A stretch of 63,907 bases of DNA, the filler included, from Rhabdomonas costata (taxonomy: Eukaryota), in assembly GCA_019059605.1 (NCBI GenBank). It is 49 parts of 49 records of this genome, joined end to end, with 100 filler letters (N's around TTAATTAATTAA, not from the genome) between each part and the next. Parts side by side here need not be neighbours in the genome. Positions count along the whole stretch, not along the records: positions 3,915 to 5,121 come from JAHMHO010023612.1; 48 more parts are not named here. The stretch is one strand, 5' to 3'. Positions within the stretch are counted from its first letter, which is position 1, and each line of letters starts with the position of its first letter. Position numbers and translations under genes: made by a program. A model generated the notes under the pieces. That model worked only from the letters and a program-made list of their open reading frames with translations. It was not told the origin of the DNA and made no database searches. Shown here piece after piece: positions 2,131 through 56,264 of this stretch.

Positions 2131-3914
2131 GATTTACTTTGGAGAGTGGTGTCGGATTATTTCAATCAGTGTTCCAGACTCTTGACGATATCTGTGCGCT
2201 CCTCTGGTGTAAGGAATATTTCTTCACTGTGGTCTACCCCATTCAGCTGTAGCAGCGAGCGTCGACTAATTTGGCTCCAATATGGGCGGTTGGTAAACAG
2301 GCGCTAATGTTTCGGTGGAGTTTTCATCCTGGAGCGAGGAAACCTGCTCTCCGGGCTCCTGCTGACCTGCAGCGAGCTCTTCCTCGGGCTTACTGCCCAT
2401 CCCTCCTCCATCCACATGCTGCCCCTGACCTCCTTGACCTTGGCCGAGCTCAGGCTTTGTAAGAGGCATCCATCAATTTTTGAACTTATGCCCCACAACC
2501 CCCACCNNNNNNNNNNNNNNNNNNNNNNNNNNNNNNNNNNNNNNNNNNNNTTAATTAATTAANNNNNNNNNNNNNNNNNNNNNNNNNNNNNNNNNNNNNN
2601 NNNNNNAGCTATATTGTGGAAGGGAGCCGTTAGAGAGATCGGTCGTCGGTCGTCAGAGAGACGCCCTCCACCCTAGCAGTGGAGTGTGTAACGGCTCAGG
2701 ACACGCAGGAGAGCCTTCGAGTGGATGAAAAAGGTAAAGAACACGTTGGTGTTCGCCGTCGTGAGAAATTTCAGAGTCATTTTCGACGGAGAGTAGAAAG
2801 AGTGGTCGATATACGAGATTTGAGTGGAATGGTTGACCAGCTAAAAATTGGAAGTTCAGCACTTGAGTTGAGAAGAGAGGAGAGTGTTGTTGCTGCAAGA
2901 GCAGAGATAAATTCTGTTGGTGAGATGGGACTTCAGAAAAGCTCAAGAGTTGATGAAGTAGTGGTGCATTTGGATAAAGCAATTGGAGGAAGTCACGGAA
3001 GATATATGGGACCAGTTGAATGGGAGAGAACTAGCTTGACCTAGTTGATGAAGAAGGGGAAGCAAGAGCAAGAACATCTGACCGAGGCAAGTCGGGAAAA
3101 AGCACAACCCGAGTATATGACACCCTGCCCGGCAGAAAAGCAAAGCGAGAGAGGGAAAGGGGAGAGAAGGTCGAACCGGAGAGAGAGAAGGGCAAGACCA
3201 TCGAGCGAGACAGTGAGAGAAAGGATTGGGAAGGAAAGTGGAAAAGACGCGAAAAGCAGGAAGGCACGGCAAGCGAAAAGCACAGGAGAAAGGAGAGCAG
3301 CCAGCGAGCAGAGAGGAGAAGAGATAAAGCGCACCCGAGATATAAGATGGGAGCGCACGCGGAGTTTGATGTGCAGCCTCCGACAGAGCCAATGTTGACC
3401 TAGGGGGGCTTCAAGAACGACGGCGAGAAATGTGACGAGATAGAAAGGGAGAGACAATAAAGGAAGTGCGAGCAAACTAATAAACGAAAACAAACAAGCG
3501 GACAAACAATAGCAAAAAGGAAAGTTGCCGAACTGACCACTGAAGCAATGAATACGAGAGCCTTCTTGGAAGCAAGATACCAACCAGGAAGGTTACAGAA
3601 GGACCATGCTGTTGAAGTGATAGGCACAGTCACAGCGAAAAATAGGCAGAAGGAATCCAAATATCGAATCCAAAACCAACATCCCCGCTCTTGACAGCCG
3701 CTGTTCTGTGCAGATTTCTTTTGCTGAAGAAGTCCCCTGTTTGTTTTATTGTCACCGTGTGTAGCGGTAGGGCACACGCGGAAGTCAAGAATCAAAGCCC
3801 GAGAAACCAACACANNNNNNNNNNNNNNNNNNNNNNNNNNNNNNNNNNNNNNNNNNNNTTAATTAATTAANNNNNNNNNNNNNNNNNNNNNNNNNNNNNN
3901 NNNNNNNNNNNNNN

Positions 3915-5022
3915 TGTGTGGTGGTGAGGAACATGGCAACCCGCTCCTTAATCGCAGGGCTCGCGGGAAGTGGGGCATCCTATGTAAATGGGGTGTGTGC
4001 ATTCGCGTTTGGTTGACAGGATGAGCTGATCAGTAGTGTGCGCGTTTGGGTTCCTGTAAGTGATGTCTGGATTGTGTGTGTGGTTGCATGGGACATATGA
4101 AATTGGAGGAGCAAAGATCTGCTTTCGGCTTCTGCAGTCCACTTCCTTCCAGGATAACACTTCTCCTCACAGAAGTTCGATTTCTTCTGAACCGTCACCG
4201 TCTCATACAACACCGTGAAAAGTAACCCGTGAAACCCACCTCAAATATTGTTAGATAGACGGGTGGGGCTGCGTCAGTGAGCAGGGGTGCGCCCACTGCT
4301 CACTGACGCAGCCCGACCAGTCTATCTAACAGCAGATGAAAAACTCCTCGCTATCGGCGATGGCCTCGACAAACAACGCGGAGAGGGTGTCGAGCTGCCC
4401 GTGCTTGCGGCACACGTTGGCAATGTTCTGCTCCAAGCTGCGGTGGACAGACAACGGCGCTGAACCACGCACCATAAAGATTTGTCACGCTGTGTGAGAG
4501 CAAAGCAACCGCACCGCACGGGCCTGGAAATAAAAGTGGAGAAGAGGAGATCGAATTCCCTAGTGTTCGGAGGTGAGAAGCGCCAGAAGCCAACATTCGA
4601 TGGGAGAAGGGGAAACTCCCGCGGCAAGAGCTCAGCCCGGAAACCTGGACAGGGCGATCAGGACGTCCAGGGCTACCAGCTTCACCGCTTCCGAGGGGCT
4701 GCCCAGGAACCGCAAGATGTCCAGCACTGGGGCACTTCCAATCACTGTCGCAAAGAAAGACAGAGATTGGGTGCAGCAGCAACATTTTCGCAGTACGTTC
4801 CCCATAAGCAGCGGGGCAGGACTGGGGCTACCGGTTTTGCCTCGCACCTCCTTCCTGGTGTGCATGAACCATGAGACATACATTCACGACCGCTGCGGAA
4901 CCCATTCCCCTTTTCTTTTGTACCAGAGGGCTCGTAGCTCCAAAACATGAGCGTCTCGTCGAGCTTCTTCAGTGGGGATCCCTCGGACGGGCGCTGCAGC
5001 AGCAGTACCTCCGCTGCACCGG
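3915..5022 (-). CDS. Multi-exon helical/ARM-like hypothetical protein; exons 5022-4924, 4744-4645, 4437-4332, (4248-4240), 3979-3915
   Basis: The first two introns are phase-consistent GT-AG (…WSYEPS/VIGSAPVLDILRFLGSPSEAVKLVALDVLIALS/SLEQNIANVCRK…EEFFIC); continuation requires removing the 4249-4331 hairpin. Confidence 0.6.
4249..4331. repeat. 83-nt hairpin (36-bp stem, 2 mismatches); candidate nonconventional intron
   Basis: TGTTAGATAGAC-gggtg-GGGCTGCGTCAGTGAGCAG ... CTGCTCACTGACGCAGCCC-gacca-GTCTATCTAACA. Confidence 0.9.
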
Positions 5023-7153
5023 CTGTGCAGAAAGACAGGGGGGGGGGGAAGGTCAATTCAAGGCTTGCCAGATCTCGCAATGGAAGGCAGACAGGCAAGC
5101 TGCAGGGAAGATGGGAGCGGGNNNNNNNNNNNNNNNNNNNNNNNNNNNNNNNNNNNNNNNNNNNNTTAATTAATTAANNNNNNNNNNNNNNNNNNNNNNN
5201 NNNNNNNNNNNNNNNNNNNNNGTGGTGGAGAGCTGGGAAACTGCACGGGAGCTGAGACTACTGCACAGTACCAACGCAGAGAGTATAAATGCAGTTTACT
5301 TATTAGAACTTCGGGTCCTCCTTTTTCCGTTCCGAAAACCTGCAGCTGCTGTGCTCGTGTGTTTGCGATTGTCGCCCAACTCGGTGTGCCCCCGGAGTAT
5401 GTCGCTGTCTGGCCAAGCCACAGGTTTCCCGCACCAGTTTCGAGGAGCATCATCCCCTTGCTCGTCTGATCTCGCGCCCTGGGTCACTCCTTCCGATCTC
5501 TGGCCTCGCAATGCCTCTCCCACTTGTCCCACTTGCTCCCGCCTCTCTCTACTCTCATTCCCGATGCGAACGCGATGCTGCACAACTTGGCAGGCTTGCT
5601 CTTCCCCCTGCCCCCAGCCTGCAGGTTGGGACAAGGTCCGGAAAACGCTTGCTCCCGCTTGCTCCTGGACCTTGACCATTTTTTAAAAAAAATTTCGCGA
5701 ACCCATCATTGGGGTGGCGTCTCCCTCCGGGTCGCTTTTTTCATCTTTTGTTGTCGCCAGTGCTGAGCTAAAGGGCGAGAGTACCCTTGCCGAGCACGCC
5801 CAATAAATTACAGCAAGAAGAGGGGGTGCAGAGGGTGGGGAAGTAGCCCGTACCTTGACCATCAAGACGATCGGGATCCTTCCTCGCGGAGAAGGGCGGC
5901 AACGACGTTCCCGGTGTCAGCTGATCTCCTACCGAGCCTTGCTGCGATCGAGTCGAGAGGTCCTTCCGGATCAGTTGCAAGCCCGCCTCATCGGGTTGAC
6001 GAAGTCGTCTGCGAACCCCCCAGCATTGGAAGCTCACTGGGAGAGATCCTAGGGTGCCCTACCACATTCCGACTGAGATGGGAGGAGCGACGAGCTGCCA
6101 CGTAGCAGCGCAAGACTCGGCGCACGCTGTGCAAGTAACACGCCCGCGGGTTCGAAGCCCCATTCCATATGCAAAAAGTAACACCCTTCCTGGATCTTAG
6201 GTCACTCAATAAGACATGGCCTACACCCCTCCCTCCCTCCAGTTCTTCCTTGACTCTTCGCTGTCTTGGACCTTTCCCACGCTTCAGACTTGCTTTTCAC
6301 CAAGTTGGATGTGAGTAACTATCTGGTTACTTTCTTGTCCCTCCTTCACCCGCCATCGGTGAATGGCTGCTTCACGTTCTCTGCCGGCGCCTCCCTTTTG
6401 GGTGGTCGTGGTCGCCCCTATTCCCCAANNNNNNNNNNNNNNNNNNNNNNNNNNNNNNNNNNNNNNNNNNNNTTAATTAATTAANNNNNNNNNNNNNNNN
6501 NNNNNNNNNNNNNNNNNNNNNNNNNNNNGGTATCATCACTGGCACAATGCCCACAGACCCCGCTGGACGCCTGCAAGGGATCACGATTGCGATTTCACAC
6601 GCCCCAGAGCCCAGACGAACGAACTCGAGAAGCAAAATCAGACACGTCAAAAAGCAATGGTGCACAGCCCACGTGCGCTAATTCAAGGGATGATACAAAA
6701 TGCGCCCAACTCCGTGCACCCCAAGGGGGCTGCAGAGAAGGAGGCCGTGCGGACGAAGGGGGTGGAATAGAAACCGTGGAGAGCAGAACGCAAGGGGCAA
6801 CCTCACATGGGTGCTTGTGCGTTTGCTTTGTTGGGGTTAGCCGTCAGCGTGGAGGCCGACATAGGTGAAAGAAGGAGAAAAAGAAAACAGTGACGCCGGA
6901 GGCGTGCAATACACAGGGGAGGTCTCCTGAACAAAGTTGCAGAGAACCCCCCACAGGGGCCGCGGGACAGGAGAACTAGAACTGGCAACACACACCCCAA
7001 GAATACCCGGCGGGCCCCAAACCAAACGCTCTTTAAAAAGGAGAGTATGGGGAGGACTGGAGAGGGCTCTCCCAACGAAAGCAGAAGGACGAGGAAAGAC
7101 ACGTTGGGCAGCAGGCCGCTTGGCTCAGCAAAGGGAGGCGGCCCCCACGCCCC

Positions 7154-30046: not shown

Positions 30047-30842
30047 GGGTGTGTGGAAGGTGACCCCGGAGCTGAAGAAGGTTGAGGTGGCCTCCGCGTC
30101 GCCCTACAACCCATTTGTTCGGCCGTGGTACACCGCGGTCCGGGACCGGAACTTCAGCGCGGCTTTCTCCCCAGTATTTCAACTGGTCTCGCAGGCCTCC
30201 ATCGGCTTGTCTTTGGGAGTCCCTGTGCGGTCCTCCGCTGGCACCCTTCTTGGTATGGTGGTAGTGAACTACGACCTGAGCACCATTCGCAAGGCGCTGT
30301 ACTCTGTCCACCGCGCCCTGAAAACCACAGGGATGCTGATTCTGCTCGCCGAGGACGGGACGCTGATCTCCACCCACATGGGCAGCAACTCGACTGAGGG
30401 AATGGAAATGATGGCCTCGCTGCGGTCACTTCCGGACGCTGGCGGTGTGACCCAGGCCACGCTTGCGCCGTTTGGGACTTGCTTTGTGATCCAGCTGACG
30501 ATCACGGGGCAGATTCGGCCGGATTTCTTCGCCTATGGGCTGAACTGGAGGCTGTTTGTGGTTCTCCCCCAACAGGAATACTATGGAGGGGTGTGGAGCA
30601 ACAACCGCCTCGCGGTTATCCTGTTGGCGGTGTGCACGGTGACCTTCTCCGCGGTACAGCTGTTCTTCTACCGGTTCATTCTGGTGTTCCACATGCGCAC
30701 CCTTCTGCGAGGGCTGGTGCAGCTCAAGGCCGCCGTGGACAGCTGTGGCGAGACGCTCTCTGAGAACTCCGTGGTGAGTCAGCGTTCTTCGCCCGCTCCG
30801 GAGAACCTGTCGGTGTTTTCGGAGATCCGGGCCCTGCATCAG
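30047..30842 (+). CDS. Cache-domain membrane sensor (receptor cyclase/kinase type), partial exon
   Basis: YNPFVRPWYTA...FSPVF...SLGVPV...GTLLGMVVVNY.L..I, DGTLIS, LNWRLFVVLPQQEYYG, then a TM helix and a HAMP-like SEIRAL; CAG|GT donor. Confidence 0.8.
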
Positions 30843-31418
30843 GTTCGCCATATTCGCTCTTGGTAGGTTTCAGATACAGATTGTGGGAATGATGGGATCA
30901 CTTCGCTTCGTGGCTTTTCGAGAGCTTTCTGGGGGCGCTGAACAGCGTTAGTAAGCAATTTGTTTTTCCAAACGATCACACAGTGTGGGGCTCTGCCTCC
31001 TGAAACGGCCCGTTTATGTGTCGCCTCCGTGTCCACAAAGACTCCCCCACCACCCCGGCGCCACAGCGTCTCTGCTTCTGCCGCCCTCCTCTGAAATAAA
31101 ACTGTCCCAACCGCCAAAGCCCAAAACGAAACTGCTCCAAACTCAACTGGAAATAACGGAGGAAACAGATTCGTTTTTTTTTGTTGCTGGCCGTTTAACA
31201 CCCCATCCTAACCCCAGTTTTATTGTGTTGCAGGCATCTCGTCGGTCCAGGANNNNNNNNNNNNNNNNNNNNNNNNNNNNNNNNNNNNNNNNNNNNTTAA
31301 TTAATTAANNNNNNNNNNNNNNNNNNNNNNNNNNNNNNNNNNNNNNNNNNNNGGTTGTTGTCCTTTCAAGAATTCCCTTTTCCTTTCGCTTCATTTCTAT
31401 TCTTGCCTTCTTTCGTAG

Positions 31419-50658: not shown

Positions 50659-52947
50659 CTGCGCGCGACGAGAGTGCAGTCTAGAACCTGTAATGAACGG
50701 AGGGGGGTGAATTCCGGCAAGAAAACAAGGTTGTGATGGACGTTGGGCGGGACCACACAAACGGGATATCAGCAGTACCAACCACCAACCAACGACAAAC
50801 ACACACACACACACACACATGGAGAAAGAAACGAAAAAGAANNNNNNNNNNNNNNNNNNNNNNNNNNNNNNNNNNNNNNNNNNNNTTAATTAATTAANNN
50901 NNNNNNNNNNNNNNNNNNNNNNNNNNNNNNNNNNNNNNNNNGGTGTTGGGGGAGATCGCTCCCTAGCCCTGAGCTGAGTGAGGGCAAGGGAGAAGGACAT
51001 CAAGCCCTCGTCCACGAAAAGTTTGCGGATACGGGGAAACGGGCTCACGCAGAGTTTGGGTGTTCGTGAATCTCAGGGTGCCAGGGAGGAGCTGCGGGTG
51101 CTGCCGCTGAAGAGGGGTTTGCGTCAGATATTTGAAGCGTTGCTGTTCGCATGACAGGCTTCCCCGTGTCTGTTCTTTTTCTTACTGGTCTTCTCCGGCA
51201 CCCGTGCACTGTGCTTTCTTTTTTATATCGCCGTGCACCGTGCACCCTTCTTTGGAGTGCGCGGGAGTGTTCTTTCCAACTCTTATTTGTCCTTTTCCCC
51301 CACTGCAATTTTCTTTTTCTTTCCTCTCGCTTTCCCTCCATGTGGTCGCATGTCAAAAGAACTGTTGCTGTTGGTGCCCGAAGTTTGCTCAGCCTCGCCC
51401 CCGTCGAGGGGGTGTGTGTGGGATTGAAAAGCTTCTCTACTTCGGAGTCTGTTTGGAAACCAGCCGAGTTTGCAATGCTCACCCTGGGGGCGAGGAATTG
51501 GGTTACGGTGTGCCCTGCCCTGCCTTTTTATTCTGTGGTGGTTGCTCTTCCCTCTCCTTCTAGCCCTGCTTGCTTGCCTTTCTTTCTTTGTTCTCCACTT
51601 TTTCACCAGCCGTTTCACCAAAAGGTAACATGATCGGATCTGGCATCTTTTCTTTGCGTGCACGTTTCATGAAACATCAAAAAGTGCCTCGCTCTTCCCC
51701 TTCTTATTTCCGCCTCTTCATTAGTTTTCCGGTTGATTCAGTTCAATCTTTTTTGACCCCCCCCCCTGCATACTTGCTCTGCTTTTCACGACGGTGTCAC
51801 TCTTGCTGTCTGTCTCTCTGTTATTAATTTTTCGGTTGCAGAGCAAATTGCCGACGCTCATCAATCCTGAAAAATCATCAGCGATGATGATCTTCGAAAG
51901 CTCCTCAGAACTACATCCCATCCATGATAATTAGCAATGCTTGCTCTTTCAATGAAAGGGTCTAAAATTCCCATGGTGTGTCCACCACAGTTACTAACAA
52001 CACTCATCTCATTCACCACTCACCCAAAAATTGTTACCTCTCTCTCTCTCTCTCTTTGGGTCCGCCTACACTCAACCTTCTTTAGGACACCTCGGCCGCG
52101 GCCGCAGTAGGGTGTCCCCCACACCACCCAAACACACGTAACACANNNNNNNNNNNNNNNNNNNNNNNNNNNNNNNNNNNNNNNNNNNNTTAATTAATTA
52201 ANNNNNNNNNNNNNNNNNNNNNNNNNNNNNNNNNNNNNNNNNNNNTGTTGTGGGGCTACTGGCCACCTTGTTTTAACCGAGTTGCATGATGCGCGCCCCT
52301 CTCATTTTTCAGAGGTTGGAATGGTGCTCTTCATGCTTCCAGTTGTGGCGCTGTTTAGCTGGTACGAGACTTGACTTCTTCTCCTTTCTTTGCACGATAG
52401 CGCTCGTTCTTGTCCCACTAAAAACTTCTCGAGAAATTTCAGTTTGTCGCTGGTCTGCGCTTTGCTGTGACTTTTCCGTTTGTTCTCGATACATTCCAGG
52501 TTTTTTCGGTTCAACACCCTAATCCCTCGCTCATTTTTTAACACAGACCCTGAAATACTTCATTTTCAAATTTTTTGGTTTTTCCACCAGCGGATCCTTC
52601 CCGGATGAGATCTTTGCCATTTTTGAGCGCTCACATTGGTTCAATGCCGCGTGGCTTTGTTGTACGTTCTGTTGTATGTCTGGAAGCTGATGGTTTGACA
52701 CATTTTTAAGAGATACCCCGGAACTGTGCCACAGCCCAGGGGTGTCCAACGATGCATCCAAACGACTTGGACCGTTTCGACGGCGACTGTTGTTAAAGAG
52801 TGGTGGGTGTGGACGTTCCAATTTTCTGATGATGGCTTGTGCGCTTTGTTTTCTACTATGCTGTTACGTCACATATTTATTTCTTTGTTTCAATCATTGT
52901 CTAGGTTGGCATTGTGGCAAGCCGACTCGCTGGGCCGTCTCGTTGCC

Positions 52948-52990
<43 letters not shown>

Positions 52991-53119
52991 CTGCCTTTCT
53001 TGCTTTTGTGTTTTGCTATGTTTCAAGTCTGGCAGGTGGAGTAGCGAAGGAAAACAACAGCGAATAGCTCACTGTGCGTTGCTGGGTTATATTCCCCTTC
53101 TTGGTTTTTTTTCAATTCT

Positions 53120-54739: not shown

Positions 54740-54866
54740 CACACACCCCCCCAAACACACCAACACNNNNNNNNNNNNNNNNNNNNNNNNNNNNNNNNNN
54801 NNNNNNNNNNTTAATTAATTAANNNNNNNNNNNNNNNNNNNNNNNNNNNNNNNNNNNNNNNNNNNN

Positions 54867-55825: not shown

Positions 55826-56264
55826 CGTGGGCGATGGGAGAAAATTTTCGATCCCAGCCTCGGTGTCCCCTGGGATGGGCATATTTGACATTTGGGACAT
55901 TTCCGGGACTCCATGGTTCACGATGGTTGATTCCTGTCACCTTTTCCTCACTTCTGAAACACAATGCGTCTTCCAAAGTAGTTGATCTCGAAGTCCTTCC
56001 AGCCCTCATCTGCCCTCGTCGGGAACGGGAAGTCGGAGATCCTACCGCTGTATTGCCACACAGGATCACTGCNNNNNNNNNNNNNNNNNNNNNNNNNNNN
56101 NNNNNNNNNNNNNNNNTTAATTAATTAANNNNNNNNNNNNNNNNNNNNNNNNNNNNNNNNNNNNNNNNNNNNGTGGTGGGTGTGTTTGGTTGTGTTTTGG
56201 GCAACTTTTTTTAAGTGATGTCGATCGCTTCCTTTTGTGGTCCTTTCGTTTTGGGTGTAATCAG

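Follow-up and report, generated by a model that had tools for sequence, protein, structure and literature searches.

A near-perfect palindromic hairpin at the end of a coding exon in Rhabdomonas costata and its possible removal as part of a 91-nt GT-AG intron

The window considered here, a stretch of 63,907 nucleotides from Rhabdomonas costata, is not a single locus but a series of 49 contigs of 1199-1216 bp that are joined by N/TTAATTAATTAA linkers. One of these contigs, at positions 3915-5121, carries on its minus strand three exons of a gene, which are named A, B and C in the following. Exon A (4924-5022, codons 5020-4925) has a GC3 of 0.78 in its frame, compared with 0.42-0.65 in the other frames. 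It is preceded by a C-rich tract and CAG, and the donor GT at 4923-4922 opens a conventional GT-AG intron of 179 nt (intron 1, 4745-4923), which starts with GTACAA and ends with a pyrimidine-rich tract and CAG. Exon B (4645-4744, codons 4742-4647, GC3 0.81) is phase-compatible with exon A and is separated by a second conventional GT-AG intron of 207 nt (intron 2, 4438-4644) from exon C (4332-4437, codons 4436-4332), which has a GC3 of 0.89 and a GC12 of 0.43 and which ends at a hairpin. The overall GC of these exons is 0.58-0.64. Each of the three acceptors of the contig that can be regarded as sure is a CAG preceded by a pyrimidine tract. The frame of exon C runs through its last codon, TGC at 4334-4332, directly into TGT TAG at 4331-4326. 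GC3-rich stretches are also seen elsewhere, as intron 1 contains one in another frame (4916-4797) and as 18 high-GC3 ORFs were counted in the window, several of them antisense.

The 35 residues encoded by exon C were compared by HMMER with 1.84 billion representative sequences, which gave 14 proteins at E ≤ 1e-3 and none at E ≤ 1e-10, the best match reaching 48.3 bits at 33% identity. Twelve of the 14 proteins were hit in at least two stretches, with a single-stretch score of at most 17.9 bits. Six of the matches were inspected, and five of these appear to be tandem repeat proteins that we would assign to the TPR type by our own reading of the motif, the sixth being a low-complexity repeat. 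Neither an orthologue nor a protein from the gene's own transcript was among these HMMER matches. In a word-index search among longer proteins, the exon C ORF found seven candidates, none of which scored; Pfam gave no match for exons A-C or for a proposed downstream exon, and Rfam gave no match in the window.

An earlier note on this sequence had described an 83-nt hairpin inside a coding region, and this was borne out by an inverted-repeat search and by folding, with the GC3-rich exon C lying directly upstream of it. The single inverted repeat found between 4100 and 4500 has arms of 39 nt at 4249-4287 and 4293-4331, which are 92% complementary and spaced by 5 nt. When a 111-nt piece of the minus-strand RNA is folded, the hairpin forms helices of 12, 3, 19 and 3 bp, interrupted by two mismatches and a single bulged U and closed by a loop of 4 nt. 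The stem is near-perfect, as had been said, its length being 37 bp in four helices rather than 36 bp. The folding energy of this piece is -74 kcal/mol, as against -33.8 +/- 3.5 kcal/mol for shuffled sequences (z -11.6), and none of 200 shuffles equalled it, in contrast to introns 1 and 2 of the same contig, which are unstructured (z -1.2 and +1.1). The outer 12 nt of the hairpin form a perfect inverted repeat and the entire element is palindromic; its arms differ at the internal positions 13, 17 and 37, the last of these being the bulged U in the RNA fold model. The two in-frame stops that had been placed in the hairpin, TAG at 4328-4326 and TAA at 4253-4251, can be read directly. The hairpin is most probably located in an intron, because it adjoins the end of an exon that is clearly coding, has stops inside, and is followed by sequence that allows an in-frame join.

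Further copies of the element were sought. In the 63.9-kb window, the 12-nt terminus of the hairpin occurs only in its own two arms, and blastn searches of this window, one with the hairpin and one with the whole contig, gave the self-match only and no further copy. The terminus pattern had no match in metagenome_contigs, and a 19-mer of the stem had one chance match (L001) in an unrelated G+C-rich stretch, near which an inverted copy was not found. No direct repeat marks the ends of the 83-nt unit, in agreement with the earlier statement that no target-site duplication is visible; around the 91-nt unit discussed below, GT alone is repeated, and TA lies inside the palindrome.

We think, with a probability of roughly 0.4, that the hairpin is a palindromic insert truly present in the genome, that it accounts for almost the whole of a short intron in a helical-repeat protein gene with several introns, and that this is a 91-nt GT-AG intron (4240-4330) at the hairpin foot, with ordinary ends rather than an intron of a new kind. 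The intron would start with the ordinary GT 4330-4329, at the base of the helix on its 5' side, and end with AG 4241-4240, the first AG past the helix, so that 91 nt would be removed and exon C would be joined to a further putative coding stretch starting at 4239. In euglenid terms it would be a "conventional/intermediate" intron, with canonical ends and a stable structure that draws the ends together. It had been stated that the intron has no AG, but GT 4330-4329 and AG 4241-4240 also bracket the hairpin. The GT stands in phase 1 of the exon C frame, the removal of 91 nt restores an open frame of 86 codons, and a CTAAC is found at 4254-4250, 11 nt upstream of the AG. In the fold of the 91-nt intron (-70.3 kcal/mol, z -14.05, equalled by none of 200 shuffles), the hairpin starts right at the 5' end and abuts the splice site, +1 pairs with -11, and the unpaired 3' tail comprises 10 nt. 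A second GT at 4239-4238 allows the cut to be shifted by 0-2 nt. A GC..AG cut at 4333-4240 also brackets the helix. Euglenid conventional introns with a stable structure that joins the ends have already been described (PMC4770533), and the 91-nt reading is supported by the predominance of conventional introns in one euglenid draft genome, in which 29 of 29 complete introns in six genes are GT/AG and only seven nonconventional candidates were found genome-wide (PMC8219788).

The 3' end of the 91-nt intron consists of a C-rich run at 4268-4253 followed by 10 A/T-rich nucleotides and GAG, and it thereby departs from the C-rich tract plus CAG that form the E. gracilis acceptor consensus (PMC11170887). 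The GAG after this A/T-rich segment is also unlike the three CAG acceptors of the contig, which speaks against the 91-nt reading, as does a second possible role of the acceptor bases, which can be read as a donor close to consensus (GAG|GTGGGT), a point in favour of the model of the earlier note. Two further routes were rejected: one GT-AG intron running from 4330 to 3980, because TGA would arise at its junction, and recursive splicing via AG|GT at 4240|4239, which likewise gives TGA.

There are weak signs that the stretch directly downstream of the favoured cut is coding. This candidate exon C2 (4161-4239) lies in the frame of the 86-codon ORF (3980-4240) and has possible donors at GT 4170 or 4160. 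Its 25 codons at 4237-4163, window limits that were set after the profile had been seen, have a GC3 of 0.72, a GC12 of 0.36 and a D of 0.36, a value that is reached by 1.38% of 106,392 25-codon windows from the other 48 contigs, or by 0.89% if stop-free. A repeat profile built from the three upstream repeats only, hand-aligned on a shared G, scored the C2 stretch at 3.2 bits, which 0.97% of 3000 null pieces reached, and the continuation proposed in the earlier note at -0.1 bits, which 12.8% reached. A profile built with MAFFT has no discriminating power, with -2.1 for the 91-nt model and -1.5 for the earlier one, reached by 50% and 30% of the null pieces. The overall GC of C2 is 0.48, like the surrounding non-coding sequence and below that of exons A-C, and false positives of the GC3 signal do occur, since a comparable GC3-rich stretch lies inside intron 1. 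The whole 86-codon ORF was rejected as a last exon (last 60 codons with GC3 0.43 and D -0.07), and so was the idea that a gene on the plus strand causes the period-3 signal at 4237-4163, the plus-strand frames having stops. The structure, its place at the end of an exon, the stops, the GT and AG and the frame arithmetic are shown by the sequence; we infer that the hairpin is spliced out, which cut is used, and that 4239-4161 is coding.

Nonconventional introns are excised from mRNA and released as circular RNA. The model first proposed for the locus consists of an 83-nt structure-defined intron (4331-4249 or 4330-4248), a micro-exon of 9 nt (4240-4248), a 260-nt intron from GT 4239 to AG 3980, and an exon from 3979, and we regard it as unlikely. 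Its landmarks are in place: 9 nt past the stem stands GAG|GTGGGT with its GT at 4239-4238 (donor 4234-4239, near consensus), which is the best donor-like site on the contig, and the CATAG acceptor is present with its AG at 3981-3980 (acceptor and exon D together, 3926-3984, CATAG|G). Exon D itself (3979-3926) is GC-richer, with 0.63, than 4239-3980 with 0.48. The removal of 83 nt (4331-4249) keeps the frame to 3979 as calculated earlier, but being "in frame" is a weak test because two of the three frames of this last exon, f0 and f1, are open (GC3 0.67 each, D 0.06-0.08). Against the model also stand the low GC3 of the micro-exon (0.33), the fact that the 260 nt taken as an intron form a single open frame throughout, with 25 coding-like codons at the start, and the lack of a second hairpin copy in the 63.9-kb window and in the metagenome_contigs terminus scan.

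The hairpin brings the intron ends together through stable secondary structure, as nonconventional introns do. A pairing of +4, +5 and +6 with -6, -7 and -8 is found only for cuts with S+E = 8578. The 83-nt cut at 4330-4248 (GT..AA) is one of them, with all three positions paired, and the slide by 1 nt that had been suggested, pairing +1 with -3, indeed yields the +k/-(k+2) register of euglenid nonconventional introns. With this cut, the intron also begins with a purine and is preceded by a pyrimidine, both of which are features of the nonconventional class (PMC4770533). The flush cut at 4331-4249 (TG..CA) is off this register and starts with a pyrimidine. The usual CAG/CTG is missing, as the earlier note had remarked: the on-register cut carries AGA/TCT at +4..+6 and -8..-6 instead of the CDG/CH'G of the genetically defined Euglena code, N3-CDG...CH'G-N5-6|R, purine included (PMC12501133). 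This is not fatal to the 83-nt model, because 38.8% of the nonconventional introns of E. agilis lack the code (PMC12501133). However, a purine opens the downstream exon in 55 of 55 nonconventional introns (PMC4770533), whereas the next exon would start with T after 4330-4248, an A being left only by the off-register cut 4331-4249. A longer on-register cut, 4337-4241 (97 nt), shows U-A, G-U and a C/A mismatch and carries TGC/ATA. In the region, 20 cuts fit the code, none of which has its 3' end at the hairpin, the nearest being at 4182. As there is a GT...AG at the foot, no code-fitting cut at the hairpin and a T after the on-register cut, the nonconventional class is neither shown nor favoured, and what most probably stands of the proposed structure-defined, non-GT-AG intron is its intronic nature.

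It is similarly improbable that the hairpin is retained in the mature transcript, either as a recent palindromic MITE-like insertion that truncates the frame at TAG 4328-4326 and leaves a dead allele or pseudogene, or as the opening of the 3' UTR behind a natural C-terminus. The stop lies one codon into the hairpin, the termini form the perfect 12-nt inverted repeat, and an orthologue that could fix the C-terminus was not found; moreover, if TA (4328-4327 and 4253-4252) were the target duplication, the empty site would read TGT TAA, also a stop. Against retention stand the coding-like signals after the hairpin, namely the GC3 contrast and the anchored profile, and the splice-site-like GT, AG and GTGGGT right at the hairpin foot. 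The 83-nt unit also has no convincing target-site duplication, and no other copy was seen in 63.9 kb or in the one metagenome scan.

As a bolder and still more doubtful idea, the helix itself could be the splicing signal, with the cut placed at the foot of the 37-bp stem independently of the GT-AG rule and of the CAG/CTG code. If true, euglenids would have a class of introns derived from hairpins, i.e. from palindromic transposons. A variant of this idea is that the palindrome would bring its own signals, with GT at one foot and the mirror-image CTAAC as branch site at the other; each new insertion would then be an intron from the outset, and the hairpin, once excised, could enter RNA interference in a mirtron-like manner.

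A larger intron of which the hairpin is only the 5' part has little to recommend it. Such an intron could be the 352-nt TG...AG stretch 4331-3980, which is in frame with 3979, or a code-fitting cut from 4338 or 4335 to 4182, 4127, 4126, 4113, 4062 or 4048. Of the 20 cuts that fit the code, twelve have their 5' end at 4338 or 4335, and several of these leave at least 30 codons open, but about 20 code-fitting pairs are expected by chance in such a region by our own estimate, and these cuts do not use the helix to join the ends. Those to 4182 would remove most of the GC3-rich stretch and enter sequence with a GC3 of 0.43. The TG...AG ends are not paired with each other either, as the fold shows the hairpin alone.

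The assembly bears marks of amplification, and the earlier note had raised the possibility of a foldback chimera from whole-genome amplification. At least eight G/T-only bases open 68 of the 98 contig ends, as against 1.3% of internal 12-mers, and such primer-like ends are a typical mark of whole-genome amplification; the G/T-only end of the hairpin contig (3915-3926, about 12 nt) is probably primer-derived and not genomic. Terminal foldbacks with arms of 31-66 nt close 4 of the 49 contigs at 0-3 nt from the contig end, and the differences between their arms are confined to the outer 16 nt, beside the G/T-only end. Of the five long hairpins (arms of at least 16 nt) across the 49 contigs, 4249-4331 alone is internal. 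That it is an amplification or assembly artefact absent from the native genome is highly improbable, as its distances to the two contig ends are 331 and 787 nt, with unique sequence on both flanks and without primer-like sequence before it, and as its three arm differences are internal, unlike those of the foldbacks. In this amplified and fragmented assembly, position and the placement of mismatches in the arms can separate internal hairpins from foldback artefacts.

To our knowledge, it is still unknown how euglenid nonconventional introns are recognised and removed, and their origin is debated. In this context, a coding exon broken by a near-perfect palindrome would be a clean natural test case, because no more than 8 nt separate the competing cuts of 83 and 91 nt. 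Should the 91-nt GT-AG cut prove right, the hairpin belongs to an unusually structured yet ordinary intron, which would be a modest find. If the 83-nt cut holds, the CAG/CTG code would be dispensable given a long enough helix.

Among known systems, the favoured, putative 91-nt intron is closest to the conventional and intermediate introns of euglenids (Milanowski et al. 2016, PMC4770533). These have few paired bases, and the 37-bp helix, which takes up 81 of the 91 nt, is far more extreme. Their acceptor is CAG where a GAG is found here. The nonconventional introns of euglenids and diplonemids (PMC4770533; PMC12501133; PMC12621601) resemble the hairpin in their paired ends, which place the junctions side by side, in the +k/-(k+2) register, here available in the one possible cut 4330-4248, and in the MITE-like origin that has been proposed for them, to which the perfect 12-nt inverted termini of the hairpin may be compared. 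Unlike them, the hairpin has no CAG/CTG (CDG/CH'G), no purine at the exon start on the on-register cut and no direct repeats at the 83-nt junctions, and it offers a GT...AG alternative.

Typical mirtron hairpins are shorter and less perfect than a 37-bp stem with a 4-nt loop. Mirtrons, which give rise to Dicer-dependent small RNAs from their arms, are described in animals and plants, and our literature search, which was not aimed at that question, found no report of them in euglenids. The 3'-tailed mirtrons (PMC3431481, PMC10853799) share the design of the candidate 91-nt intron, being short GT-AG introns that consist in essence of a single hairpin; the helix starts at the 5' splice site without a gap, and unpaired nucleotides, here 10, lead to the AG. 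A last comparison is with introners and the MITE introns of Fritillaria (review, PMC11282704). Unlike these, the hairpin shows a repeat of 2 nt only and no other copy in the sequence searched, and about 9-12 nt between the helix and the second GT fall outside the palindrome. Shared with them is a short exonic element with terminal inverted repeats, and, since GT is present at both 4330-4329 and 4239-4238, one splice site could have come from the element and the other from a duplicated target.

The inverted repeat at positions 4249-4331, considered here on the minus strand of the contig spanning 3915-5121, was recovered both by an inverted-repeat search and by RNA folding, which confirms the hairpin described in the earlier note. 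Its arms (4249-4287 and 4293-4331) are 39 nt long each and 92% complementary, and as RNA they form 12+3+19+3 = 37 base pairs, interrupted by two mismatches and one bulged U and closed by a loop of 4 nt. The predicted fold of -74 kcal/mol compares with -33.8 +/- 3.5 kcal/mol for shuffled sequences (z -11.6) and was equalled by none of 200 shuffles. An RNA-family search of the window gave no match.

Upstream of the hairpin, the host gene can be read on the minus strand as exon A (5022-4924), exon B (4744-4645) and exon C (4437-4332), with in-frame GC contents at third codon positions (GC3) of 0.78, 0.81 and 0.89, respectively. GC3 is near 0.5 in the two GT-AG introns between them, intron 1 (4923-4745, 179 nt, minus strand) and intron 2 (4644-4438, 207 nt, minus strand), and both are unstructured (z of the fold energy -1.2 and +1.1). 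Each of the three sure acceptors on this contig is a CAG after a pyrimidine tract. Inside intron 1, the minus-strand stretch 4797-4916, read in the exon B frame, is GC3-rich (0.70-0.80) and carries a Gly-Ser-Pro motif resembling those of exons A and B. Use of the in-phase GAG at 4842-4841 as acceptor would lengthen exon B upstream; the stretch may mark an alternative start of the exon or else give a false coding signal. A word-index protein search with exon C gave no match, and an exhaustive HMMER search with the same exon returned 14 matches at E <= 1e-3 (none at E <= 1e-10), 12 of which match in several stretches. All six matches inspected are tandem repeat proteins, five of which we take to be of the TPR type from our own reading of the motif. 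A Pfam search of the host-gene exons found no domain; no orthologue of the host protein came from these three kinds of search, and no transcript-derived copy of it is present in the protein libraries searched.

As the helix directly abuts exon C and a TAG follows one codon on, the hairpin must either be removed or end the protein. We favor, with a probability of roughly 0.4, that it makes up almost the whole of a 91-nt GT...AG intron (4330-4240). The donor would be the GT at 4330-4329, the two bases with which the helix proper opens, and the acceptor would be the AG at 4241-4240, the first AG past the helix, the existence of which contradicts the earlier statement that an AG is absent. Mirroring the GTTAG at the 5' end, a CTAAC stands 11 nt ahead of this AG. 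In the fold of the 91-nt unit (-70.3 kcal/mol, z -14.05), position +1 pairs with -11 and a 3' tail of 10 nt is free. Its excision joins exon C in frame with an 86-codon open frame (3980..4240). The second GT at 4239-4238 allows the cut to shift by as much as 2 nt with the product unchanged.

The coding signals in the downstream stretch 4237-4163 are weak. Its contrast between GC3 (0.72) and GC at the first two codon positions (0.36) is reached by 1.38% of 106,392 25-codon windows from the other 48 contigs, or by 0.89% if windows are required to be stop-free. A plus-strand gene as source of the signal was rejected, the matching plus-strand frame containing stops. Against a profile built from the three repeats upstream, hand-anchored on a shared G, the stretch, whose boundaries were picked after the profile had been seen, scores 3.2 bits (reached by 0.97% of 3000 null pieces), and the continuation proposed in the earlier note scores -0.1 (reached by 12.8%); a MAFFT-built repeat profile had no discriminating power. 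A similar GC3-rich stretch also occurs within intron 1, and the overall GC of 4237-4163 is 0.48, as in non-coding sequence. The acceptor would be a GAG after A/T-rich sequence, unlike the CAG acceptors of this contig, and for E. gracilis the conventional acceptor is described as CAG plus a C-rich tract (PMC11170887).

The bases of this GAG also read as a near-consensus donor, GAG|GTGGGT, nine bases past the stem, and this is the strongest point for the proposal of the earlier note, which we consider unlikely: a structure-defined 83-nt intron, followed by a 9-nt micro-exon, a 260-nt intron and an exon from 3979. The elements on which that proposal was built are all there, namely the stops in the hairpin, the donor and the CATAG (at 3984-3980), and removal of 83 nt does keep the frame. 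The proposal requires a micro-exon with a GC3 of 0.33, turns a fully open 260-nt frame into an intron, and leads to an exon with two of its three frames open. Euglenid nonconventional introns are described as having non-canonical ends, pairing of +4..+6 with -8..-6, usually CAG/CTG and generally N3-CDG...CH'G-N5-6, and a purine opening the downstream exon (PMC4770533, PMC12501133). None of the 20 cuts around the hairpin that fit this code ends at the hairpin (nearest 3' end 4182), and by a rough estimate ~20 would be expected there by chance. The cut flush with the helix, 4331-4249, falls outside the register; the on-register 83-nt cut 4330-4248 carries AGA/TCT followed by T, in line with the noted lack of CAG/CTG, and the on-register 97-nt cut 4337-4241 offers U-A, G-U and one mismatch, followed by G. 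The hairpin thus shows the structure in extreme form, lacks the sequence features and has ambiguous borders, so that it cannot be filed as a typical nonconventional intron. As the code is reported to be absent from 38.8% of E. agilis nonconventional introns (PMC12501133), the mismatch is still compatible with such a mechanism.

Equally doubtful is that the hairpin is kept, as a truncating palindromic insertion or as the natural end of the gene, which the TAG one codon into it would favor. A larger intron containing the hairpin is improbable. It is most improbable that the hairpin arose by amplification or assembly, as it is internal (331 and 787 nt from the contig ends), is flanked by unique sequence on either side, has arms that differ internally (positions 13, 17 and 37, the last modelled as the bulged U), and has no primer-like sequence ahead of it.

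The window is not a single locus; its 49 contigs (1199-1216 bp) follow one another in order of length, with 48 linkers between them that consist of N runs around TTAATTAATTAA (for example 3815-3914), and neighbouring contigs are unrelated, so that nothing outside 3915-5121 counts as context of the hairpin. At least eight G/T-only bases open 68 of 98 contig ends (such as 3915-3926, 54740-54766 and 56173-56200), compared to 1.3% of 20,000 internal 12-mers, and a few ends have a longer G/T-rich leader. We take these ends to be the footprint of degenerate G/T primers from a PCR-type whole-genome amplification. They look like untrimmed primer, and ~12 nt at either end of each contig (3915-3926 in the hairpin contig) should be left out when the genomic sequence is read. 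For one euglenid draft genome, produced with an amplification kit of this type, the same degree of fragmentation is described (PMC8219788). When all 49 contigs were scanned for arms of 16 nt or more, five hairpins emerged: the one at 4249-4331 and four that sit 0-3 nt from a contig end (18043-18186, 35274-35437, 53342-53460 and 43108-43210; arms 31-66 nt, loops 12-41 nt). Their arm differences all fall inside the outer 16 nt, beside the G/T-only end, and these four are probably amplification or assembly artefacts.

On other contigs, 16981-18187 has a G+C of only 26% and one long open frame, in which leucine-rich repeats (Pfam LRR_4, 52.4 bits) precede an acidic repeat rich in Ser and Glu; its composition sets the contig apart from the rest of the window, and it may therefore stem from a different organism in the sample. 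Contig 30047-31252 has a 272-codon open frame (GC3 0.78) that weakly matches a Cache domain (dCache_1, 24.8 bits, under the Pfam cut-off of 45). Its Atlas look-alikes are bacterial-type sensor proteins, and it may derive from the host or from a contaminant. Minus-strand frames in 1300-2506 resemble, by eye, a retroelement reverse transcriptase broken by several stops. (TG)n/(CA)n runs in several contigs (e.g. 16500-16560, 50800-50841, 52950-53000) translate as His-Thr or Cys-Val repeats in open reading frames.

The earlier claim of a new non-GT-AG intron holds in part: the hairpin is probably an intron, but probably not one of a new, non-GT-AG kind. The find is modest as it stands, and the deciding question is whether 91 or 83 nt are cut.

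Judged from the sequence, termini that are perfect 12-nt inverted repeats point to a MITE-like element, and such a hairpin would fit the transposon origin proposed for euglenid and diplonemid nonconventional introns (PMC11282704, PMC12621601). Against this origin count the lack of a target-site duplication at the 83-nt unit, as had been noted before, the repetition of only GT around the 91-nt unit, and the lack of a second copy in the 63,907-base window and in metagenome scans. In euglenid terms, the favored 91-nt intron would be 'conventional/intermediate'. Working RNA interference exists in Euglena, and the geometry of the 91-nt intron would be like that of a 3'-tailed mirtron.
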